48,283 nt of DNA from Nanobdellota archaeon (lineage in GTDB: Archaea; Nanobdellota; Nanobdellia; Pacearchaeales; GW2011-AR1), in contig JAUSIC010000003.1 in assembly GCA_030648285.1 (NCBI GenBank), positions 1 to 48,283 of the forward strand. The letters run 5' to 3'. Every line of letters begins with the position of its first letter. Position 1 is the first letter of the stretch. The notes under the pieces are model-generated. The model had not been told where the DNA came from. It saw nothing but the letters and a program-made list of their open reading frames with translations, and ran no database searches. Of this stretch, positions 1,374 through 30,166 are shown piece after piece. The position numbers and the translations under genes were made by a program.

Positions 1374-1826
1374 ATGAACAAGAAATTTTCAAAACATTGG
1401 AAGTCAAGCAGAAAACCAAGAAAACAAAGAAAGTACATAGCAAAAGCTCCGATTCATATAAAGAGAAAAATGCTTCATGTTCAGTTGTCAAAAGAATTAA
1501 GAAAAAAGTATGGAATAAGGAATATAACAATAAACAAAGGAGACACTGTAAAAGTCATGAAAGGGAAATTCAAGAAAAAACAAGGAAAAGTAACAGAAGT
1601 GAATACAAAAAGACTAAGAATATTTGTTGAAGGAGTTCAAGTAAGAAAACAGGATGGAAGCAAAGCAAATGTTTTCATAAGACCTGCGAACTTGCAAATT
1701 GTTGAATTAAATCTTGAGAAGAAAAGAAGCAAGATTGAAAGAATGAAAAAAGAAACCAAAGAAAAAGTAAAAGAAGAAAAAACAGAAAGCAAAGTTAAAG
1801 AAAAAATCACGGAGGAAAAGAAATAA
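1374..1826 (+). CDS. rpl24: 50S ribosomal protein uL24
   Basis: PRKQRKY..AP.H, KGDTVKVMKGKFK KOW motif; start moved to ATG 1374 (TAAAATG junction). Confidence 0.95.
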   Translation: MNKKFSKHWKSSRKPRKQRKYIAKAPIHIKRKMLHVQLSKELRKKYGIRNITINKGDTVKVMKGKFKKKQGKVTEVNTKRLRIFVEGVQVRKQDGSKANVFIRPANLQIVELNLEKKRSKIERMKKETKEKVKEEKTESKVKEKITEEKK

Positions 1827-1876
1827 TGACAGAACTAAAGTTCAGCACAAATAAAAATTCGGGAGAATTTTCATAA
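1826..1876 (+). mobile_element. Start-codon repeat element copy 1 (mini-ORF MTELKFSTNKNSGEFS*)
   Basis: TAATG overlaps at both ends; flanking 9-nt direct repeat ATAATGACA; 3' half matches copy 6a except 2 loop bases; hairpin AAAATTC-GGGA-GAATTTT. Mobility is inferred. Confidence 0.75.
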
Positions 1877-2517
1877 TGACACACTTGAAAAGACAGCAAT
1901 CACCAAAGAGCTGGCCTGTTGTAAGAAAAGGAACAAAATACTTAGTAAAACCCAAATCAAATGGAATTCCAATGCTTATAATTTTAAGAGACATGCTTGA
2001 AGTTGCACAGAACAGAAAAGAAGTAAAGAGGGCAATCAACATGAAAAATATTCTATTGAATCAAAAACAAGTGAAAGATGAAAAAAACAGCGCTGTTTTA
2101 TTTGATACAATAAGTGTTATTCCTACAAAGAAGAATTACAGGATAACTTTCTCTGAAAAAGGAAGATTTCAGCTTGATGAAATAAAAGAAAATGAAACAA
2201 ACAACAAGATAGCAAAAATAATCAACAAGAAAATGCTCAAAGGAAAGAAAACGCAAATTAATCTTAGCGATGGAAGAAATTTCTTGTCTGACTTGAAATG
2301 CAATGTAAATGATTCTGTATTAGTAAATCTAAAAGAAAAGAAAATAGAAAAATGCATTCCATTAAAAGAAAAATCAAACATCTTTGTATTTGAAGGAAAA
2401 CACGTTGGAAAACAAGGAATAATTGAAAAGATAATTCCAGAACAAAAAATGGTTGAAGCAGATGTTAAAGGAAATAAAATTCAGGTTTTAATTAAACAAC
2501 TTATGGTAATAGAATAA
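1876..2517 (+). CDS. rps4e: 30S ribosomal protein eS4
   Basis: HLKR..PKSWPV.RK, LRDML, QINLSDGRN, GKHVG motifs. Confidence 0.95.
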   Translation: MTHLKRQQSPKSWPVVRKGTKYLVKPKSNGIPMLIILRDMLEVAQNRKEVKRAINMKNILLNQKQVKDEKNSAVLFDTISVIPTKKNYRITFSEKGRFQLDEIKENETNNKIAKIINKKMLKGKKTQINLSDGRNFLSDLKCNVNDSVLVNLKEKKIEKCIPLKEKSNIFVFEGKHVGKQGIIEKIIPEQKMVEADVKGNKIQVLIKQLMVIE

Positions 2518-5866: not shown

Positions 5867-5971
5867 ATGACAGAAATAGGAAATTTCACTGCAGACAAGA
5901 AGTCAGCCGTTCGTTCGTCAAAGCCGAGCGACAGCACAAATACAAAATCGGCATGGAGGTATTTTGCATAA
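5867..5971 (+). mobile_element. Start-codon repeat element copy 2 (mini-ORF MTEIGNFTADKKSAVRSSKPSDSTNTKSAWRYFA*)
   Basis: 5866-5942 identical (77 nt) to reverse complement of 28584-28660; 5940-5974 identical (35 nt) to 10126-10160; carries GGAGGT and ends in TAATG overlapping rps5. Mobility is inferred. Confidence 0.8.
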
Positions 5972-6732
5972 TGGCAGAAGAAAAAACAGAAGAACAAATC
6001 AGCCAGGAAATGCTGGAAAAAGAACTTGAAAAAGAAATAATAGAAAAACAAGTAGTAGAAAGAAGCAAAGAAGAAATGGAGAGGGATGACAAGATTGCTT
6101 CTTGGGTTCCAAAAACAAAACTTGGAAGAGAAGTAAAAGAAGGAAAAATCAAAAAAATAGATGAAATTCTTGATGCTAAGCAAAAAATCTTAGAAGAACA
6201 AATTGTTGAAAAATTGCTTAATCTAAAATCAGATTTAATTTCAATTGGGCAATCAAAAGGAAAATTCGGTGGAGGAAAAAGAAGAGCCTGGAGACAAACT
6301 CAAAGAAAAACAAAAGAAGGGAATGTTCCGACTTTCTCAACAATGGCTGTTGTAGGAGATGGAAATGGGCATGTAGGAGTAGGCATGGGAGAAGCAAAAG
6401 AAACTCTTCCTGCAAGAGACAAAGCAATAAGAAAAGCAAAAATAAATATTATAAAAATTATCAGAGGATGCTCAAGTTTTGATTGCAATTGTTCTGAACC
6501 TCACACAATTCCATTTCAAGTAGAAGGAAAATCAGGAAGTGTAAGAATAACCTTGATTCCAGCACCTCAAGGAACAGGATTAGTTATCGGAAATGAATTG
6601 AAAAAAGTATTAAAACTCGCAGGAATTAAAGATGTATATAGCAAGACATTTGGAAGCATTAGAACAACTTTTAATTTTGTTCAAGCTTGCATGGATGCCT
6701 TGAAGAAAACAAACCCAATTTATAGAAAATGA
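5971..6732 (+). CDS. rps5: 30S ribosomal protein uS5
   Basis: WVPKTKLG..VKEG, AVVGDGNGHVGVG, PAPQGTGL, LAGIKDV motifs; start set at 5971 because the MEVFCI prefix derives from the repeat. Confidence 0.96.
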   Translation: MAEEKTEEQISQEMLEKELEKEIIEKQVVERSKEEMERDDKIASWVPKTKLGREVKEGKIKKIDEILDAKQKILEEQIVEKLLNLKSDLISIGQSKGKFGGGKRRAWRQTQRKTKEGNVPTFSTMAVVGDGNGHVGVGMGEAKETLPARDKAIRKAKINIIKIIRGCSSFDCNCSEPHTIPFQVEGKSGSVRITLIPAPQGTGLVIGNELKKVLKLAGIKDVYSKTFGSIRTTFNFVQACMDALKKTNPIYRK

Positions 6733-7013
6733 AAAGTGCAACAGAGATTAAACAAGTAAGAAATTTAGAAGATTTAAGAGAAATACATGTAGATGATGCT
6801 GTTGAAGTTCCAACAATAGAAGCAAGAGGAATTGTTTATGGTTTTGATAAATTGTATGGATGGATGGACTTAATAGAAGATTGGGGTAATGGGTTATTAC
6901 AAGTGATGTATGTATTTAACAGAGATGAGATAATATTAAACAGCAGTACACTATTAAAAAAAGATGTTGAAAAATATGAAGCTAAATTAAGAGAAGTGGG
7001 GGTTATCAAATGA
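6729..7013 (+). CDS. Orphan acidic protein (94 aa) inserted between rps5 and rpl30
   Basis: ATGA overlaps with both neighbours; no family recognised. Confidence 0.72.
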   Translation: MKSATEIKQVRNLEDLREIHVDDAVEVPTIEARGIVYGFDKLYGWMDLIEDWGNGLLQVMYVFNRDEIILNSSTLLKKDVEKYEAKLREVGVIK

Positions 7014-10079: not shown

Positions 10080-10157
10080 ATGAAAAATAGGAAATTTTCC
10101 AATGTCCTCAGCATGAAACCTGCAGATACAAAATCGGCATGGAGGTATTTTGCATAA
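10080..10157 (+). mobile_element. Start-codon repeat element copy 3 (mini-ORF MKNRKFSNVLSMKPADTKSAWRYFA*)
   Basis: Shares AAATAGGAAATTT, CTGCAGA and the 35-nt 3' end with copy 2; terminal inverted repeat TATGAAAAATA / TATTTTGCATA (10 of 11); TAATG overlap with pfdA. Mobility is inferred. Confidence 0.8.
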
Positions 10158-10558
10158 TGGAAGAACCTAATGAACAAGAAAAACAAGAACTAATGATGAA
10201 ACTAGGATTTTTCGAACAGCAAATAAGACAAATTCAGCAACAAATTCAGGCAATTGAACAAGGAATTGTTGAAATGACTTCATTAAATTCAGGACTTGAA
10301 GAATTACAAGGCAAAAAAGATGCAGAAATTCTTGCTCCAATTGGAAGAGGAATTTATGCTAAAGCAAAGTTACTTTCAGAAGAATTGATTGTCAATGTTG
10401 GAAGCAATAATCTTGTGACAAAAGGAATTTCTGAAACAAGAAAACTCATTGAAAGCCAGATTCAAAAACTAGAAGAAATCAAAGTTGAAATGAATAATAA
10501 TCTTGAGAATTTAGGAAAAGAAATTGAAAGTGTAATGGGTGAAAAGCACGAACATTAA
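10157..10558 (+). CDS. pfdA: Prefoldin subunit alpha
   Basis: Two coiled coils around EILAPIGRGIY...LIVNVGSN beta-hairpins; start set at 10157. Confidence 0.93.
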   Translation: MEEPNEQEKQELMMKLGFFEQQIRQIQQQIQAIEQGIVEMTSLNSGLEELQGKKDAEILAPIGRGIYAKAKLLSEELIVNVGSNNLVTKGISETRKLIESQIQKLEEIKVEMNNNLENLGKEIESVMGEKHEH

Positions 10559-15101: not shown

Positions 15102-15158
15102 ATGAGCAAACAGGAAATTTGCCACAAATACAAAATAGATAAGAGGTATTTTGCATAA
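15102..15158 (+). mobile_element. Start-codon repeat element copy 4 (mini-ORF MSKQEICHKYKIDKRYFA*)
   Basis: Core motifs AGGAAATTT, CACAAATACAAAAT and GAGGTATTTTGCATAATG; begins 1 nt after aglB stop and ends in TAATG overlap. Mobility is inferred. Confidence 0.8.
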
Positions 15159-16150
15159 TGGAAATTATACTGGTAATTCCCCTTCTTCTAAGCTTTTTAA
15201 TGGCTTTATTTTTAATGCCGTTTTGGATTAAAAAAGCTAAAGAGATTGGGCTTGTATGGGAAGATATGAACAAGCCAGAACATCCAAAGAATGTTGCTGG
15301 TTCTGGAGGGGTTGCAGTATTTTTAGCATTTATACTAGGAGTTTTAACATATATTGCCATAAAGACATTTTACTTCAAATCAAAAGATAATCTAATAGAA
15401 ATTTTTGCTTCTTTGAGTGTTATCTTGGTAATTTCATTTATTGGAATTTTAGATGATTTGTTAGGATGGAGAAAAGGAGGATTATCTGCAAAATCAAGAC
15501 TGGCTTTGTTATTGTTTGCATCTATTCCTTTGATTGTAATAAATGCAGGAGAATCAAATATATTTGGAAATGTAGAATTAGGATTGATATATCCTCTGGT
15601 TTTTATCCCTCTCGGAATAATTGGAGCATCAGCAACCTTTAATTTCTTAGCAGGTTATAATGGATTGGAAACAAGCCAGGGAATATTGATATTATCCAGT
15701 CTTTCATTAATAACATTTACAACAGGAGAAAAATGGCTTTCAATAATTATTTTATGCATGGTTGCTTCTTTAATTCCTTTTTATCTTTTTAATAAATATC
15801 CTGCAAAAGTTTTTCCAGGGAATATAATTACCTATTCTGTAGGAGGTTTAATTGCAATGATAGCTATACTTGGAAATTTGGAAAAAATTGCTATCTTCTT
15901 TTTCATCCCCTATATCTTAGAAACAATCCTGAAAGTTAGAGGAAAATTAAAAAAACAAAGTTTTGCAAGGGTAAATCCTGACGGAAGTTTGGAAGTGCCT
16001 TATGAAAAAATTTATGGGTTGGAACATTTGGCAATATTTATTTTAAAAAAGGTAAAAAAGAAGGTTTATGAGAAAGATGTTGTTTATCTCATAAATGGGT
16101 TTCAGATATTTATAATAATATTAGGAATGATATTATTCTGGAGACCTTAA
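15158..16150 (+). CDS. MraY/GPT (AglH-like) polyprenyl-phosphate HexNAc-1-phosphate transferase
   Basis: DMNKP, GILDD, NFLAGYNGLE, NKYPAKVFPG motifs; adjacent to aglB. Confidence 0.9.
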   Translation: MEIILVIPLLLSFLMALFLMPFWIKKAKEIGLVWEDMNKPEHPKNVAGSGGVAVFLAFILGVLTYIAIKTFYFKSKDNLIEIFASLSVILVISFIGILDDLLGWRKGGLSAKSRLALLLFASIPLIVINAGESNIFGNVELGLIYPLVFIPLGIIGASATFNFLAGYNGLETSQGILILSSLSLITFTTGEKWLSIIILCMVASLIPFYLFNKYPAKVFPGNIITYSVGGLIAMIAILGNLEKIAIFFFIPYILETILKVRGKLKKQSFARVNPDGSLEVPYEKIYGLEHLAIFILKKVKKKVYEKDVVYLINGFQIFIIILGMILFWRP

Positions 16151-16152
16151 TA

Positions 16153-16356
16153 ATGAGCAAACAAGAAATTAAATTCGCGACCTCACTAATATGGATTAAA
16201 CGTGAAATCGCTCACCACAAATACAAAATCGACAGGAGTGAATGGAAACGAACAGGAAGTTCATTTCACGCTCTTTTTCAAAAAGTGAATGACAAGAAAG
16301 AAACATTATTTTTAGGAAAAAATAACGAAGAAAAATATCGGAGGTATTTTGCATAA
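16153..16356 (+). mobile_element. Start-codon repeat element copy 5, expanded form (67-codon ORF MSKQEI...HKYKID...RYFA*)
   Basis: Same three core blocks as copy 4 separated by hairpin-rich inserts; TAATGA at both ends. Mobility is inferred. Confidence 0.78.
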
Positions 16357-17297
16357 TGAAAATTAGAAAACTTTTGCCTATAATAGGAATTTTAATCTTT
16401 CTGTACATTTTAATAAGATTAGATATAAGAAAAGTCTTATTAGAAATCAGCCAGGCAAAAGTAAATTTTCTGTTAATTGCTGTATTATTCATTTTCATTT
16501 CCTTTTTAACAGAAACATTAAAATGGTTTTCAATAGCAAGAGTGCAAAAAACTAATATTCCTTTTTTTAAGGCAGTAAAAGTAAATCTAATCAGTTCTTT
16601 TTATGGATTCATAACTCCTTCAAAAGTGGGGGGGGTAATACGTGCAAAATATTTGAAAGAATACAACAACAATGTCGGAAAAGGAGTTGGAAATTTTATA
16701 TTGGACAAGGTTTTGGATGTATGTTCCTTAGTGTTTTTAGCAATATTATTTTCTTTTGTGTTTAGAGAGTTTCTTCCAATTAATTTTTTCTATTACTCAA
16801 TTGCCCTGCTTTCATTGATGATAATATTTCTATTCATCTTTTTTGATATGAGGAAGAGCAGATTTTTTCTAAAGATAGTCTATAAAAGATTCATTCCAAA
16901 GAGATGGAAAGAAAGAGCAAGAAAAGAATTTTATTCTTTCTATGAAGATATGCCTAAAAAAAGATATTTTTTCCTATTTTTTCTCTTAAACATTCTTAAT
17001 TGGATTGTCTTATATTCTATAAGCTTTTTTATTGGAAAATCTATTGGAATAAACCTCTCTTTCTTTTATTTCTTAGCAATTCTTCCAATAGCTACTTTAG
17101 TTGCACAGATACCAATAACAATCTCTGGATTAGGTACAAGAGAGGCAATCTTAATCACTTTATTCGGATTAGTGGGAATTGATAAAACAAAAGTATTTTC
17201 AATGTCCATGATAAATCTGTTCATAGGAGCTGTTATTCCTTCTGCAGTAGGTTGGATTTTAAGTCTGAAAAACAATAAAAATTATAAACAAACCTAA
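16356..17297 (+). CDS. Lysylphosphatidylglycerol synthase TM-domain / flippase-like membrane protein (UPF0104)
   Basis: KW, TPSKVGG..RA, DKVLD, PITISGLGTRE motifs. Confidence 0.88.
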   Translation: MKIRKLLPIIGILIFLYILIRLDIRKVLLEISQAKVNFLLIAVLFIFISFLTETLKWFSIARVQKTNIPFFKAVKVNLISSFYGFITPSKVGGVIRAKYLKEYNNNVGKGVGNFILDKVLDVCSLVFLAILFSFVFREFLPINFFYYSIALLSLMIIFLFIFFDMRKSRFFLKIVYKRFIPKRWKERARKEFYSFYEDMPKKRYFFLFFLLNILNWIVLYSISFFIGKSIGINLSFFYFLAILPIATLVAQIPITISGLGTREAILITLFGLVGIDKTKVFSMSMINLFIGAVIPSAVGWILSLKNNKNYKQT

Positions 17298-25513: not shown

Positions 25514-26409
25514 TAAAAATAATCATGATAGACGCATTCAAAGAAGAATATCTAAACTATGCCCCTTATCTTTCTTCATTGACAAAAAAATATCAATGGG
25601 GAGAATTAAAAATGCCAATTGGACATTGGGGAGGAGTAGAAGTATTCTTTCATGGAAAATCTGACAAGCTTGCTCTTTTTCAAAAAAAAGAGAAATCTTC
25701 ATTAAAATGGACTAAAAAATTTGCTTGGCTCGAGAAATTATTCGGAAGAACAGCTATTGATGCCTTGATAAATTTTCCAAGGTTTATCTTAGGTTATGAA
25801 TTATTCAAAACAGGAAAAGTTCCAATTAACCAATTAGGGAAATTTGATTTTTGTGTTAAAGAACCATTATACTCTTCAAAAGAGATAGAATTTGAATATA
25901 TTGGAGATTTAGACAATGTAGCACATAGATATGGGACAAAAAGCCAGCGGACAATCGACACAATAAAAAAAGTTGATGAAAAAATATCCAAAGAGGATTT
26001 TGATATAATATTTTCAGACCATGGAATGATTGATGTTAAAAAAACAATCAATGTTCCTTTAAGTGAGAATTGCTTTATTGATTCAGACATGGCAAGATAC
26101 TGGGGAAATGAAGAGGAATTAAATGAGATAAAAAAGAGACTTCCAATGAAAGATGGAAAGATAATTGACTGGAAAGATAAATCTTATGGAGATCTGATTT
26201 TTATTGTCAAGCCAGGAATTTTAATCTTGCCTAATTATTGGCAAGGAAAACAACCTGCAAAGGCTATGCATGGTTATTATGGAGATAATAAAGAACTAAA
26301 TGGGATTTACATAATAAAAAAACAAGGAAACAGGAAAAATTTGGGGGTAGAAGAATTGCATGAGATATTGAATAAAATGAAGGAGGAAGAGAAAATTGGA
26401 AGAAAATAA
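25510..26409 (+). CDS. Alkaline phosphatase superfamily / nucleotide pyrophosphatase-phosphodiesterase-like protein
   Basis: IDA, LD..AH.YG, SDHGM, MHGY metal-ligand motifs. Confidence 0.85.
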   Translation: MIKIIMIDAFKEEYLNYAPYLSSLTKKYQWGELKMPIGHWGGVEVFFHGKSDKLALFQKKEKSSLKWTKKFAWLEKLFGRTAIDALINFPRFILGYELFKTGKVPINQLGKFDFCVKEPLYSSKEIEFEYIGDLDNVAHRYGTKSQRTIDTIKKVDEKISKEDFDIIFSDHGMIDVKKTINVPLSENCFIDSDMARYWGNEEELNEIKKRLPMKDGKIIDWKDKSYGDLIFIVKPGILILPNYWQGKQPAKAMHGYYGDNKELNGIYIIKKQGNRKNLGVEELHEILNKMKEEEKIGRK

Positions 26410-26932
26410 ACTAGAAGACACTTATGAAGATAAAAATCTTTTAACAAGATTTTACTTCAGAACAAAGGTTTGGTTAGCAGTAAGAACTGCAAAATTAAAA
26501 AAAGAAGATATTATATTAGACTTTGGATGCGGAGGAGGGTGGCTGGAAAAGAAACTCAAGGGTTATCAAATATATGGATATGATATTAATCCTAAGAAAA
26601 CATTTATCAAAGATTATAAAACAATCAAACCCAATAAGATTTTTGTTCTGGACGTATTTGAGCATATTCCAACAGAAGAAATCAAAAAAATAGTTGAGAA
26701 TTTTAAAAAATTAAATAATAATTTTATATTAATTGTTTCTGTTCCTACTGAAAATTTAGCTTCAAGAAAAATAAGAAAATTCGTAGGCAAGCCAGAAGTT
26801 CCAAAAGAACACATCACAAAATATCAAGAGATAACTAAAATTTTAAAAGATAATTTTATTATAAAAAAGAGAATTAATTTTTTCACAATTAGCCATATTT
26901 TAATATTTAGTTATAATTCGCTTGATATATGA
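26396..26932 (+). CDS. Class I SAM-dependent methyltransferase
   Basis: ILDFGCGGG, GYD, DVFEHI motifs; TTG start preceded by GGAGG. Confidence 0.88.
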   Translation: MEENKLEDTYEDKNLLTRFYFRTKVWLAVRTAKLKKEDIILDFGCGGGWLEKKLKGYQIYGYDINPKKTFIKDYKTIKPNKIFVLDVFEHIPTEEIKKIVENFKKLNNNFILIVSVPTENLASRKIRKFVGKPEVPKEHITKYQEITKILKDNFIIKKRINFFTISHILIFSYNSLDI

Positions 26933-28511
26933 CTAAAATTGGTTGATTGTCCTGTTGATAACCCTGAACAGGAAACCATGTATCATTATGAACCATTGGA
27001 TAATTTACCATCCAATCATCATGTTTCTGAAATATTGACAAAATTAAAAACTTTGGTTTTTCTTTATTTACAAATTCATCAAAGCTTGTTTCATTGAAAT
27101 AATCCCCGCTATGACTTTCTGGATTTTTAAATCCGTCATCAAATGTTCCTGTTCTTCTTTCGGAATAATAAGAAATCTGTGGGAAGCTCTGGGTTATAAT
27201 TGTATCATCAATATTTGAATGCTGTTTTATCCATTCTCCTGCAAGTTTAAGTTCATAATAAGAACTCTTTTTACTTTCTGTTAGCTGATAACCCCAAACT
27301 AAATTAGGTATAAGACTAGCAACTAGAATAATTAAAATCAAAATAGCAATAACTTTTTTATTTATCTTCAGATGCTTTTCTACTAGTTTTCCTAATTCAA
27401 AAAGAGGAATCGCAGCAATCATAAACAAGAAGGGATGCTGCATTAAGGTATATCTCTGCTGAGCAGTCGGATCCATTTGCATATAGCCTAATACCAAAAG
27501 AGGAAGAGCTATCCAGAGAAAAACAAATAACTTGCTTTGAATTGTCTTGTTTTTGAATATCTTGTCAAATCCTAAAAAAAGATCTGCAAAGAAATAAACA
27601 GCACCGATTATAAACAATATGAATATCGGAAGAGTCAGATTATATGGCAAATCCAAGAAGTAAATAGGCCAGTTTACAACAGAAGTTCTCGCTACTGGTG
27701 CAGCTGCTGTCTTGATAATACCCAAGTCATAAGAGAGTATATCTATCAGAGGATTTCCAAAATGCTTTGCATAAACAATAAAATGAGGCACTAAGGCTAA
27801 GGCAAATATTAAAAGAGTAATCCACAAAGATTTATTTTTTAGAAACTTAAACTTTTCTTTAATAAAAGCAAGTACGAAAAACATTGGAAGAACCATTAGG
27901 TTCTGCATTCTGATTAAAACAGATACAGCAAGGAAAAGTCCAGACAAGTACAGATATTTTTTTCCCTTTTCCATTTCATATCCTTTCCAAAAAAGAAACA
28001 AAGTCAAAAGAATAAAAAAAGTAGAAGGTATATCTGTCATTGTTCTTCCTGTGAAGAAAAAAGCAACCCATGAAAAAGTAAGTCCTATTGCTGTGAATAA
28101 GGCATATTTTTTATTGAACATGTCCCTGACTAAAAAATAAGAAACTGCGATAATTCCTGTTGAAAACAAAACTTCTGAAAATCTTATTCCAACTTCCCCT
28201 AATCCAATCTTAAAAAATAAGGCTCCAAATAATGGCCACAAAGCTCCTCTTCTGTAATACCACAAATCAGTCATATTACCAACACCTGCCCATAATTTAG
28301 CAGTAGACATGTATTCTGCACCATCAAACCACATTGCCTGGTCTTTTGTTATAAAAAAGACTACAACCCTAATAACAAATGCTAAAATTAAAACTCCAAT
28401 AAATGCCTTATCATAATTATCTTGAACCCAAGAAAATAGTTTTGTTTTTATTGTCTTTTTTCTTTCTTCAATAATTTTTTCTTCTGATTTAATTGCTATT
28501 ATTTCTTCCAT
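26907..28511 (-). CDS. GT-C fold membrane glycosyltransferase (PMT/ArnT-like)
   Basis: WFDGAEY loop after TM1, TDIP, RY, many TM helices, C-terminal GEWIKQH domain. Confidence 0.85.
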   Translation of the reverse strand: MEEIIAIKSEEKIIEERKKTIKTKLFSWVQDNYDKAFIGVLILAFVIRVVVFFITKDQAMWFDGAEYMSTAKLWAGVGNMTDLWYYRRGALWPLFGALFFKIGLGEVGIRFSEVLFSTGIIAVSYFLVRDMFNKKYALFTAIGLTFSWVAFFFTGRTMTDIPSTFFILLTLFLFWKGYEMEKGKKYLYLSGLFLAVSVLIRMQNLMVLPMFFVLAFIKEKFKFLKNKSLWITLLIFALALVPHFIVYAKHFGNPLIDILSYDLGIIKTAAAPVARTSVVNWPIYFLDLPYNLTLPIFILFIIGAVYFFADLFLGFDKIFKNKTIQSKLFVFLWIALPLLVLGYMQMDPTAQQRYTLMQHPFLFMIAAIPLFELGKLVEKHLKINKKVIAILILIILVASLIPNLVWGYQLTESKKSSYYELKLAGEWIKQHSNIDDTIITQSFPQISYYSERRTGTFDDGFKNPESHSGDYFNETSFDEFVNKEKPKFLILSIFQKHDDWMVNYPMVHNDTWFPVQGYQQDNQPILVIYQANYN

Positions 28512-28561
28512 TACATAAAATCTCCTATTTTATGTTTGTGGCAAATCTCCTGTTTGCTCAT
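28511..28561 (-). mobile_element. Start-codon repeat element copy 6b (mini-ORF MSKQEICHKHKIGDFM*)
   Basis: 5' part nearly identical to copy 4; perfect 9-bp hairpin ACATAAAAT-AGGAG-ATTTTATGT; TAATG at both ends. Mobility is inferred. Confidence 0.8.
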
Positions 28562-28659
28562 TATGAAAATTCTTCTGAATTTTTATTTGTGCTGTCGCTC
28601 GGCTTTGACGAACGAACGGCTGACTTCTTGTCTGCAGTGAAATTTCCTATTTCTGTCAT
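28561..28659 (-). mobile_element. Start-codon repeat element copy 6a (mini-ORF MTEIGNFTADKKSAVRSSKPSDSTNKNSEEFS*)
   Basis: 5' part identical to copy 2, 3' end like copy 1; TAATG-coupled to copy 6b. Mobility is inferred. Confidence 0.8.
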
Positions 28660-28686
28660 TATATGATTTGTTATATTGATTATTTT

Positions 28687-29163
28687 TTAATCGTTTTTTA
28701 TCTTCTTAATTATGTCTGTTGTAGAATTAACTTTATCGCTGGTGAATGCTATTTTTCCGCCATAGCTTTCAACAACTCTTCTTTCTTCCTGATTGCATGT
28801 ATCTATGTTATATTCTCCTCCTTTGACATACACATCTGGCTTGAGAGACTGAATATGGCCAACAGGACTCTGCTCATCATAAATTAAGATAAAATCAACA
28901 GAACTTAAAGCAGAGAGTATTTCTGCTCTTTCTCTTTGGGGTATTTTCGGCCTGTCTGGCCCTTTAACTGCCTTGACAGAAGAATCTGAATTTAAGCCGA
29001 CAATCAAAAAATCCCCTTTCTCTTTAGACTCATTCAAGTGCCTTATATGCCCTACATGAAGTATATCAAAGCACCCATTTGTCCAAATTATTGTTTTTCC
29101 CTGCTTTTTCAACTGAGGAACAATAATCAGCAATTCCTCATAAGTCTTTATTTTATCAGACAT
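28687..29163 (-). CDS. RfaE/HldE domain II-like sugar-phosphate nucleotidyltransferase
   Basis: TNGCFDILHVGH, VGLNSDSSV..KGPDRP, PDVYVKGG.Y, STT motifs. Confidence 0.92.
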   Translation of the reverse strand: MSDKIKTYEELLIIVPQLKKQGKTIIWTNGCFDILHVGHIRHLNESKEKGDFLIVGLNSDSSVKAVKGPDRPKIPQRERAEILSALSSVDFILIYDEQSPVGHIQSLKPDVYVKGGEYNIDTCNQEERRVVESYGGKIAFTSDKVNSTTDIIKKIKND

Positions 29164-29194
29164 TTAACTAAAAATAATAAGCCTTTTAAAAAAG

Positions 29195-30166
29195 TTATTG
29201 TGATAGAGCATTTAAAACCTCCTCAGCAGATATGCTTTTTGTAAGCTCTTCAGAGTACAAATCCTGCTTCTCTGGAAAAAAGTCATAAAGTTTTGGTGAA
29301 ACTATTTTTTTTAATGTTCCATATCCTTCAATTTCATCAGGAGAAGTACAGAAAAACAAGCCTATTGTTGGTTTTTTTAATGCAAGAGAAATGTGCAGTG
29401 AAACACTATCTGGACAAACAATCTCATCGCATAAACTTATTAAAGAAATTAGCTCTCTAAGAGAGCAATTCAAATCATGCGTATAAATTTTTATCCCTTG
29501 CTCTTTTAATTCTTCAATTAATTCTTCATACTTACCTTTTTCATCAGGTCCTCCAAGCAACAAAACTTCCTTATTTATTTTTCTAATAAATTCTTTTGTG
29601 TTTTCAAAATTCCAAACTTTTGAAGGCCATTTTGGAGAAGAACCTGCATAGATTCCGATTAGTTTTTTTTGAGTAAGATTATTATCTCTCAAGAATTTTT
29701 CAGCGTAATCTTTTTCCTTATCAGTTAAAACAATTACAGGCAATTCCTTAGAATAGGGTAATTCTGCTGCATCAAACATCATTTCTTGATATGTTCTTTT
29801 ATTTGTCTTTTTTAGATTATCATCAAATAAGGTATTTAGATAATATTCTGCAGAGAGATTAAATGCAACAGGATAACCATTTTCATTATAAAAACCAAAT
29901 TTTTTTTCTGCATTAATTTCTTTTGCTATTCTTGTAGCTTCTTCATCAACATCAAAATTATATAGGATGTCAAAAAATTCTCTGGGATAATTAAAAATTG
30001 AAAATACCCTCTGAACATGAGGATTTGCTTCAAATATTTGCATATTATGCTCTTTTGTTATCCAAGTTATCTCTGAATCAGGATATTTTTTCCTAACTGC
30101 CTGAGCTATTGGAAGAGTTCTTATGACATCTCCAGACGCACCTAATTTGATTATCAGTACCTTCAT
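29195..30166 (-). CDS. GT9 (heptosyltransferase-like) glycosyltransferase
   Basis: IKLGASGDVIRT.P, NPHV, WPSKVW, LLGGPDE, DS...HI..AL motifs. Confidence 0.9.
   Translation of the reverse strand: MKVLIIKLGASGDVIRTLPIAQAVRKKYPDSEITWITKEHNMQIFEANPHVQRVFSIFNYPREFFDILYNFDVDEEATRIAKEINAEKKFGFYNENGYPVAFNLSAEYYLNTLFDDNLKKTNKRTYQEMMFDAAELPYSKELPVIVLTDKEKDYAEKFLRDNNLTQKKLIGIYAGSSPKWPSKVWNFENTKEFIRKINKEVLLLGGPDEKGKYEELIEELKEQGIKIYTHDLNCSLRELISLISLCDEIVCPDSVSLHISLALKKPTIGLFFCTSPDEIEGYGTLKKIVSPKLYDFFPEKQDLYSEELTKSISAEEVLNALSQ

Follow-up and report, generated by a model that had tools for sequence, protein, structure and literature searches.

Two stacked start-codon cassettes ahead of a glycosyltransferase gene in a Nanobdellota archaeon, probably belonging to one family of small insertion elements that are not autonomous

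Small non-autonomous repeats such as the Correia/NEMIS, RUP and ERIC sequences and the Rickettsia palindromic elements form hairpins, are present in many copies, are co-transcribed and are tolerated because they preserve expression. Sub-terminal hairpins are also a feature of the IS200/IS605-derived PATEs and of integron cassettes, which insert in a strand- and orientation-specific manner beside a short fixed sequence, and regeneration of the target at the 3' end would allow arrays to form. The mycobacterial MIRUs occur in tandem, as exploited in MIRU-VNTR typing. In the review PMC12548453, which summarises the work on MIRUs (Supply et al., 1997), their 3' junction is given with an overlap of -4 (NTGA), whereas the archaeal units described here end with an overlap of -1 (TAATG). 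The review also mentions an engineered design in which a “short ORF delivers a ribosome” and refers to termination-reinitiation where stop and start codons of archaeal or bacterial genes overlap (Huber et al., 2019, PMC6728339; Huber et al., 2023, PMC10666635). A full-text literature search, which included a Nanobdellota preprint and covered main texts, returned no description of such elements in archaea. Judged by analogy, MIRUs appear to be the closest published counterpart, and the resemblance would be a functional one.

The window, by which we mean the whole stretch of 48,283 nucleotides that was analyzed, carries two units head to tail on the minus strand, 6a (101 nt, 28659-28559) and 6b (53 nt, 28561-28509). 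Both span from an ATG to a TAATG, and the final ATG is the start of a gene for a PMT_2 (GT-C) glycosyltransferase. An earlier note on this DNA had described two elements in tandem in the order ATG-6a-TAATG-6b-TAATG-gene, and the coordinates and overlaps on the minus strand confirm this arrangement. We consider it probable that 6a and 6b belong, as distinct units, to a small non-autonomous insertion-cassette family with a translation relay, that members of this family stack and that 6a is a composite. The locus comprises the following features:

28683-28690, minus strand: TATA-like box TTAAAAAA, read from the sequence.
28559-28659, minus strand: element 6a, 101 nt with a 32-codon mini-ORF, defined by ORF reading, alignment and module typing.
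28595-28639, minus strand: M1, a nested hairpin module of 45 nt (15 codons) within 6a, defined by alignment with M1-less copies (length difference 45, divisible by three).
28566-28583, minus strand: 3' hairpin of 6a, from the fold and a comparison with other B tails.
28509-28561, minus strand: element 6b, 53 nt with a 16-codon mini-ORF, an H2 head and a C-type tail, from ORF reading, typing and a covariance-model match (E 2e-5).
28513-28535, minus strand: 3' hairpin of 6b, whose 9-bp stem is perfect and whose loop contains AGGAG, from the fold and helix covariation across tail types.
26907-28511, minus strand: host gene, a 534-aa PMT_2 / GT-C-type glycosyltransferase (Pfam PF13231, E 4.5e-16).
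28687-29163, minus strand: upstream gene, cytidylyltransferase-like (Pfam PF01467).

Element 6a opens with its ATG at 28659-28657 and is made up of an H1a head (28640-28659), M1 with a predicted stem at 28614-28594, the core and a B-type tail, and its TAA (28563-28561) overlaps the ATG of 6b (28561-28559). The TAA of 6b (28513-28511) overlaps the ATG at 28511-28509, the start codon of the PMT_2 gene, and the 3' hairpin of 6b ends 1 nt before the TAATG. In the 3' hairpin of 6a the loop reads AGAA instead of the GGA or GGGA of other B-type tails, so the Shine-Dalgarno-like motif seems to be weakened in this unit. For the whole 167-nt leader a fold of -31.1 kcal/mol is predicted (z = -3.67). The upstream cytidylyltransferase-like gene has its stop 27 nt ahead of the 6a ATG, and the TATA-like box, to which the earlier note had already pointed, starts at -31 relative to this ATG, which makes it a plausible one given that the genome-wide peak of such motifs is sharp at -29/-28 from start codons. 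In the relative G020, the only one that has the gene, a PMT_2 homologue (49% identical) follows a nucleotidyltransferase gene at a distance of 24 nt with no element between, and no allele of the 6a/6b locus with zero copies or one copy was seen in the Logan contigs.

The earlier note had also considered that the tandem or the chimera might be a misassembly of repeats. Collapse or mis-joining of repeat copies is an extremely improbable explanation, as the Logan contigs of run X1, which is possibly the source sample and in that case represents a second assembler and not second data, give the same path at a depth of 10.2-11.2, like the unique flanks. One contig (27900-28587) runs from the gene through the whole of 6b and across the junction into 6a for 27 nt, a 96-nt unitig (28565-28660) spans tail, core, M1 and head with 0 differences, and a further contig (28631-29300) also reproduces the path. 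An artefact would agree with the repeat bin 28558-28604, in which the summed depth is 193 and contigs break, and with a joint that “goes back 107” in one contig (side 34) and is absent from the source-genome assembly, but tandems of unlike units also occur at two other loci of the source genome and on an independent metagenome contig. Another joint in X1 skips 45 and corresponds to an M1-less form. Only small parts of the locus are found in the runs X2, X3 and X4, mostly as 6b-like or tail-B-like units in other contexts.

The family comprises 42 headed copies in the source genome (G000; 622 kb, 84.7% complete, DPANN-type), whose gene content with S4e, L19e, prefoldin and AglB-type genes is that of an archaeal host. 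The tail motifs occur 41 times genome-wide, and the units range in size from about 50 to 200 nt. The other copies in the window are:

1826-1878, plus strand: copy 1, H1b head and B tail, between the genes for ribosomal proteins L24 and S4e (ORF reading, Pfam, typing).
5867-5973, plus strand: copy 2, H1a head, M1 and A tail, between the genes for ribosomal proteins L18 and S5; the 77-nt twin of 6a (alignment, Pfam, typing).
10080-10159, plus strand: copy 3, H3-type head and A tail, preceding a prefoldin gene (ORF reading, Pfam).
15102-15160, plus strand: copy 4, H2 head and A tail, between an AglB/STT3-like gene and a GT4 gene (ORF reading, Pfam, typing).
16153-16358, plus strand: copy 5, at 206 nt one of the long forms, its mini-ORF comprising 67 codons, preceding an LPG-synthase-like gene (alignment, typing).

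A cassette sits exactly between the original start signals and the gene, and its first ATG replaces the start codon of the gene. In the source-genome copies the head ATG is always at the position expected of a normal start codon, with a TATA box at the spacing typical of leaderless starts or with the upstream gene's stop directly adjoining. A TATA-like box at -31 to -26 from the head ATG is present in 13 of the 42 copies (in copy 3 such a box lies at -29), and in 22 of them the head ATG abuts or overlaps an upstream stop (-8 to +7). Most heads begin with ATGA, which preserves NTGA overlaps with the upstream gene. The last five bases, TAATG, close the mini-ORF and supply the new gene start; one in-phase open copy has TGATG at this place. 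What follows downstream is an ORF of at least 50 codons in 37/42 copies and another element in 3, and the units precede genes of unrelated kinds, which encode ribosomal proteins, prefoldin, glycosyltransferases and a radical-SAM protein.

The likeness to MIRUs lies in the short repeat placed exactly at start codons of unrelated genes, including positions inside operons, in the small ORF inside the repeat, which overlaps a flanking stop at one end and a flanking start at the other, and in presence or absence at orthologous sites (four filled versus empty, one with one versus two units). It is a likeness by description, and the units, which have an archaeal host, are not filed as MIRU members. 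Unlike MIRUs, they form two hairpins, the 3' one of which bears a ribosome-binding motif in its loop, many of them occupy start codons of the leaderless type with a TATA box immediately upstream, and their tandems consist of unlike units with reassorted heads, tails and nested in-frame hairpin modules.

The frame from the head ATG to the TAA is in phase and open in 37/42 source-genome copies and in 17/17 copies from metagenomes, counts which overstate the number of independent events as the copies are related by descent. Five of the 42 copies are out of phase or closed and still lie ahead of ORFs, so an open frame is not strictly required. Five nested hairpin modules of 45, 48, 60, 42 and 45 nt are all open, and the fact that their lengths are all multiples of three argues for selection on read-through translation; that nested modules keep the reading frame open is reminiscent of the Rickettsia palindromic elements. 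Furthermore, one core is read in two frames under different heads, with a 1-nt loop difference that restores the phase, and the three tail types encode unrelated C-termini. From these patterns we infer that selection acts on the frame and its translation and not on the peptide.

With respect to structure, a cassette has a hairpin on either side of a conserved single-stranded core: the 5' one is weak, and the 3' one, just before the TAATG, displays a GGAG-type Shine-Dalgarno-like motif in its loop. In the 3' helix 88.9% of the cells are paired, again counted over copies of common descent, compared with at most 63.9% in slid controls. The 3' helix covaries: across three tail types both sides changed in 4/9 pairs, and none of 500 shuffles (0/500) was as high. 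The 5' stem was predicted in 37/40 copies but is weak (median z -1.5), and 3/40 copies are without it. The open mini-ORF of each unit, the hairpins with GGAG in the 3' loop and the in-frame nested modules are absent from the earlier note.

It is highly improbable that the mini-ORFs are real small-protein genes and the repeats a paralogous peptide family. The open frames and the long forms with mini-ORFs of up to 67-71 codons would fit such a family, but a peptide would hardly be maintained by one DNA core that is read in two frames and by tails that change the C-terminus even as compensatory changes preserve the RNA helix. The 67-aa product of copy 5, a unit that carries several nested hairpin modules along with its H2 head and A tail, has no Pfam match.

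For the leader mini-ORF, delivery of a ribosome seems to be the only plausible role. In the translation relay that we propose, ribosomes would begin at the old start signals, translate the mini-ORF, stop at the TAA and restart one base back at the ATG, aided by the built-in ribosome-binding motif. At the locus studied here this would be a two-step relay from 32 codons via 16 codons to the glycosyltransferase. An insertion would then cost the host gene little, because read-through is followed by restart. The TAATG overlap and the ribosome-binding motif inside the leader ORF are in line with known termination-reinitiation coupling; in contrast to known translational coupling, the proposed relay would be carried by a repeated DNA unit that comes and goes and could be chained in two steps. 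If the relay is true, MIRUs have a counterpart among archaea in this family, which also amounts to a natural experiment on how translation starts, in which one cassette serves leaderless (TATA) as well as coupled (operon) starts, can be chained and tolerates in-frame hairpin inserts. Archaeal re-initiation after very short ORFs and the contribution of the loop motif would thereby become testable.

Comparison with relatives shows sites that differ in occupancy. Related contigs with 82-95% nucleotide identity in the flanks carry a unit at four start codons, namely those of a radical-SAM gene and of S14, L19e and L18, while the same four sites are empty in the window (3015, 4961, 5362 and 17310) with clean ATG-to-ATG junctions. 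In addition, the related metagenome contig L019 has two units at a site where the source-genome contig C15 (23291) holds one. Presence or absence and one versus two copies at orthologous start codons indicate that the units come and go, and that they stack. This bears on the possibility that the units are not mobile at all and represent the conserved regulatory 5' leader of a regulon, be it an attenuator, an undescribed riboswitch or a leader that binds a protein or an RNA, with the tandem as a doubled module. The conserved two-hairpin architecture with a ribosome-binding motif in the loop and the same position before start codons throughout would be expected of such a leader, but between orthologues in relatives at about 90% identity the unit is gained or lost with clean junctions, it serves genes that have nothing in common and no Rfam match was obtained at gathering score in the whole window. 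A covariance-model search found the unit in only 2/60 other relatives, once each. We therefore regard a regulatory leader as very unlikely, and later co-option of mobile units for regulation may still have taken place. A preceding search of 40 relatives with an exact, fixed-length pattern found the source genome only and the fixed pattern gave 0 loci in the genome contig collection; this pattern was too rigid and was replaced by the covariance model.

The source genome contains three tandem arrays, namely 6a/6b, C15 21493-21601 and C12 around 2605, all of unlike units. Together with the two-versus-one site of L019 they imply that an element's own ATG or TAATG can receive another unit, and in this respect the stacking postulated in the earlier note was borne out. 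We propose that the stack was formed because the ATG of a resident cassette is a landing site as good as any start codon. Local duplication of one unit with subsequent divergence or conversion seems an unlikely origin of the tandem: both stacked units of L019 carry the same head variant, as expected after a duplication, but 6a and 6b differ in head, tail and length, as do the units of the other two arrays, and with 6a and 6b unlike throughout, duplication and divergence would have to rewrite nearly every position.

Regarding the make-up of 6a, the earlier note had claimed identity with copy 2 over 77 nt including one flank base and a 3' end from copy 1. Both statements hold. Element 6a and copy 5867-5973 are identical at 77/77 nt, of which 76 belong to the element and one to the flank, as far as the core common to both; beyond it they diverge. 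The 3' 37 nt of 6a differ from copy 1826-1878 by 2 mismatches; a repeat search reports an 88-nt inverted pair with 97% identity. Among the 40 short copies none has an identical twin and the nearest-neighbour identity is at most 0.97, a background against which the 77/77 block gives moderate support to the recent copying assumed before. Tails A and B are each found with head H1a and with head H1b, and the presence of all four combinations demonstrates that modules in this family were reassorted. The M1-bearing head likewise occurs with tail A and with tail B. Element 6a would thus be a composite of an M1-carrying head as in copy 5867, joined near the shared core to a different tail type.

The assumption that modules recombine at the core is supported in part: modules may have been exchanged close to the shared core, or M1 may have inserted more than once at one spot, two routes to 6a that the data do not separate. 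Independent insertion of M1 into two elements, the counterpart of local duplication for the chimera and equally unlikely, agrees with the behaviour of M1 as an insert of its own, since the nested modules including M1 have 2-4 nt of repeated sequence at their borders, a unit of this head and tail that lacks M1 is located at C9 22704 and the joint that skips 45 was found in X1. However, M1 is present in two source-genome copies only, 45/45 identical and inside the 77/77 block, whereas other copies are at least 3% different, and one recent transfer fits these data at least equally well. The stacked chimeric locus suggests that the family is still being reshuffled, and such loci could serve as strain-typing markers for uncultured DPANN populations.

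At clean junctions only the ATG is repeated at both ends, and a few copies share more with the host gene, up to 12 nt (C25). As a side result, microhomology-guided insertion is at most a lead, as 3 copies share at least 3 nt between the head and the host-gene start, which is not above shuffled pairings (3278/5000). Neither terminal inverted repeats, looked for in the family alignment, nor a fixed target duplication beyond the ATG were seen, and in this the units may differ from MITE-type repeats. They also differ in that no cognate transposase was found in the source genome and that their start-codon specificity is near absolute. Hairpins are sub-terminal at both ends of the units (at the 3' end by covariation, at the 5' end by weak prediction) as in the IS200/IS605-type PATEs. 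With these and with integron cassettes the units also share a position of fixed strand and orientation beside a short constant sequence and a target restored at the 3' end. However, a Y1 (HUH) transposase (PF01797) gave 0 matches in the source genome, as did DDE_Tnp_1 (PF01609); at 84.7% completeness of this genome a transposase partner may be unassembled. The TnpB-ribbon (PF07282) has one match of 20.2 bits, below the cut-off, and the other mobility candidates are one DGR-type reverse transcriptase and one tyrosine recombinase (PF00589, contig C19). The units are scattered instead of forming one array, show no attC/attI-like organisation and carry no cargo gene, in which they appear to differ from integron cassettes.

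It is conceivable, though rather doubtful, that start codons as such, whether leaderless, coupled or cassette-supplied, are the integration target of a dedicated machinery, and that with exchangeable in-frame hairpin modules and ribosome relays about 6% of the genes, which formerly had leaderless or coupled starts, now depend on re-initiation assisted by a Shine-Dalgarno motif. In that case a selfish element would be rewiring the mode of translation initiation genome-wide. A TATA-like motif at -31 to -26 precedes 258/657 genes of the source genome compared with 47 in a control window, and a GGAG/GAGG motif is found upstream of only 101/657 crude gene calls. About 40 of these 101 motifs are supplied by cassettes, so that in such genomes, if the relay exists, gene callers and simple motif counts would get start sites and modes of initiation wrong.

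On the minus strand of the window two small inserts, 6a and 6b, are stacked between a cytidylyltransferase-like gene and a glycosyltransferase gene, and each of them runs from an ATG to a TAATG.

Features of the 6a/6b locus
29163-28687, minus strand: cytidylyltransferase-like gene (PF01467)
28690-28683, minus strand: A/T-rich box TTAAAAAA, which contains the stop of the cytidylyltransferase-like gene
Between this gene and 6a, minus strand: spacer of 27 nt
28659-28559, minus strand: unit 6a, 101 nt in length, with its ATG at 28659-28657 and a TAA (28563-28561) that overlaps the next ATG (28561-28559)
28561-28509, minus strand: unit 6b, 53 nt in length, with its ATG at 28561-28559 and a TAA (28513-28511) that overlaps the next ATG (28511-28509)
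From ATG 28511-28509, minus strand: PMT_2 (GT-C-type) glycosyltransferase gene, 534 aa (PF13231, E 4.5e-16)

Unit 6a and the copy at 5867-5973 are identical over 77 nt, a single base of flank followed by the head, a 45-nt insert and the core; both part ways 3' of the core, and the 3'-terminal 37 nt of 6a match the copy at 1826-1878 with 2 mismatches. The minus-strand reading, the coordinates and both matches had been described correctly in the earlier note. The A/T-rich box begins at -31 from 6a, near the TATA peak of the genome and not on it. In a relative from another genus (G020), a 49%-identical glycosyltransferase gene lies 24 nt after a nucleotidyltransferase gene with no unit between them, a junction that may be taken as a distant and hence weak "empty site" for this locus.

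The concern that tandem and chimera could be a misassembly of repeats was addressed using the Logan contigs of the sequencing run X1, possibly the source sample itself; Logan therefore represents another assembler, applied to what may be the same data, and not independent data. Three contigs retrace the path through 6a and 6b at a depth of 10.2-11.2, equal to that of the unique flanks: one of 9044 nt covers 27900-28587, an exact 96-nt unitig covers 28565-28660 and one of 6387 nt covers 28631-29300. The summed depth of 193 in the repeat bin at 6a/6b arises because other copies of the family pile up there. One further Logan contig of X1 links 28664 back to 28558 and thus goes back 107 (depth 9.7, shorter side 34 nt), an arrangement not found in the genome containing the window.

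This genome (621,814 bp in 25 contigs, 31% G+C, 84.7% completeness, with the window as one entire contig) is archaeal in gene content, including S4e, L19e, L18/L5e, prefoldin and AglB/STT3-like genes, and it contains 41 occurrences of the units' tail motifs. A catalogue that allows slightly wider tails and requires a recognisable head contains 42 copies, and a covariance model derived from the 40 short copies gave 43 matches in this genome; two further genera of the family, G012 and G042, had a single match apiece, and the remaining 58 relatives searched had none. Both outside matches are single 50-nt units with an open mini-ORF to TAATG (G012 C14 11773-11823 and G042 C20 39722-39772), and one of them precedes a gene whose product, by eye, starts like ribosomal protein L2. 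The build is modular, with four heads (H1a, H1b, H2, H3) that each have their own small stem, a conserved core, three tails (A, B, C) and five nested modules (M1-M5).

The head ATG of the units occupies the normal place of a start codon. In 22 of the 42 copies it adjoins or overlaps the upstream gene's stop (-8 to +7, ATGA and TAATG overlaps included), and a TATA-like motif begins -31 to -26 from it in 13; an ORF of at least 50 codons follows 37 copies and another unit follows three. Across the genome, the distance of TATA-like motifs from start codons peaks sharply at -29/-28; at -31 to -26 such a motif precedes 258 of 657 crude gene calls, compared with 47 in a control window. Going by what is established about archaeal promoters, spacing of this kind implies leaderless mRNAs, which would place the TATA-class copies in a leaderless context. 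GGAG or GAGG is present upstream of only 101 of the 657 genes, and roughly 40 of these motifs are provided by the units. One unit of the 6b type (H2 head, C-like tail; C12 10171-10223, plus strand) lies 5 nt past the 3' end of a putative tRNA gene.

A scan of metagenome contigs revealed 17 loci at about 12 distinct sites, with flanks 82-95% identical to the genome. Relatives carry ATG-unit-TAATG where the window has a single ATG at four start codons, those of S14, L19e, L18 and a radical-SAM gene (3015, 4961, 5362 and 17310). At the S5/L30 junction the relative L011 has a unit and lacks a 94-aa ORF of the window (6729-7013, plus strand) that overlaps both genes with ATGA at each end and has no Pfam match. 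The number of units can also differ, as the site at C15 23291 has one unit in the genome and two in L019.

From the head ATG to the TAA of TAATG the reading frame is open and in phase in 37 of 42 genomic and 17 of 17 metagenome copies. Heads of the H1 and H2 types read the common core in different frames, with the phase regained through a 1-nt difference in the 3' loop, and tails A, B and C encode unrelated C-termini. Since the core is read in two frames and the C-termini are unrelated, the peptide itself is not what is conserved. The nested modules (45, 48, 60, 42 and 45 nt) are all multiples of three, open and predicted to form hairpins; by length alone, the chance of five out of five multiples of three is (1/3)^5, about 0.004. 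In our reading, the open frames and module lengths reflect selection for translation all the way to the TAATG. The remaining five copies, out of phase or closed, still precede ORFs, so this requirement is not absolute, and here the built-in ribosome-binding motif may suffice.

This motif (GGAG/GGAGG) lies in the loop of a 3' helix of 9 pairs that ends 1-2 bases ahead of TAATG. Over 40 copies 88.9% of cells pair, compared with at most 63.9% in slid controls, and both sides changed in 4 of 9 pairs; none of 500 shuffles was as high, with the caveat that three tail types underlie the covariation. At the 5' end the stem is short and weak; folding predicts it in 37 of 40 copies with a median z of -1.5, and its sequence varies by head type with pairing maintained. 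At the orthologous site filled in both L012/L013 and the genome (C11 13863), the 5' stem sequence is wholly different and still pairs, which points to compensatory change. For the 167-nt leader of the 6a/6b locus a fold of -31.1 kcal/mol (z = -3.67) is predicted, holding both 3' hairpins and the stem in M1. The loop motif of 6a is weakened (AGAA), which in this single case would fit a unit no longer driving a real gene.

The genome contains two tandem arrays besides 6a/6b (H1a+M1+B, then H2+C), and every array consists of unlike units. On contig C15 (21493-21601) H3+A is followed by H2 with a short A tail ending TGATG, and on C12 around 2605 H1a+A is followed by a truncated unit still ending TAATG. 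If every start codon can be hit, including both ATGs of resident units, about 45 units landing at random among roughly 660-750 start codons would give, by a rough estimate, n²/G = about 3 stacks, and therefore no special stacking preference is needed. H1a and H1b are each joined to A and B tails, and the M1-bearing head occurs with either tail. As all four combinations exist, the modules have been reassorted as the earlier note proposed; exchange near the core, its suggested route, is only one possibility, the other being that M1 inserted more than once at a single position. The 77/77 identity exceeds the nearest-neighbour identity among the 40 short copies (median 0.94, maximum 0.97, no identical twins) and thus supports a comparatively recent transfer or gene conversion between 6a and the copy at 5867-5973, as had been suspected; on the whole, the earlier inferences were largely borne out.

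The closest described kind of element are the MIRUs, whose internal ORF is coupled to the gene with a -4 spacing, probably minimising the effect on expression, according to the review PMC12548453, which cites Supply et al. (1997). We class the present units as MIRU-like start-codon cassettes. They differ from MIRUs as they belong to another domain of life, have a TAATG junction (-1 versus -4), two hairpins with a ribosome-binding motif in the loop and a predicted leaderless context, form heterotypic stacks and are modular with nested hairpins in frame. Full-text literature searches and passages of a Nanobdellota preprint yielded no description of such elements in archaea. With these units, both re-initiation in archaea and the dispersal of ribosome-binding sites through a mobile element become open to direct testing.

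Concerning movement, Y1 transposase and DDE_Tnp_1 families had no match in the 84.7% complete genome; the candidates in it are a single TnpB-ribbon match below threshold, a reverse transcriptase and a tyrosine recombinase. The precision of insertion is unlikely to be due to selection alone: crude gene calls leave about 15% of the genome non-coding, but almost every copy ends exactly on a start codon. A headless unit at C7 26212 (about 26150-26300, minus strand), with only an A tail and then a 7-codon ORF, has on either side a near-duplicate, roughly 45 nt in length, of the upstream gene's end, suggestive of a long target duplication or of an insertion that failed. At C25 10076-10135 (plus strand) head and host gene agree in their first 12 nt, and 10 nt are common to the head and the first codons of the host gene at C15 15312. 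Overall, identity between head and host gene beyond the ATG is not above chance, and a copy-choice or microhomology process would be a lead from such cases. Where heads start with ATGG in place of ATGA (among them C25 10076, C15 15312, C9 22704 and C15 12263), the host gene does so too in 4 of 5 cases, compared with about 26% of genes genome-wide, and the boundary between unit and gene may fall a few bases into the gene.
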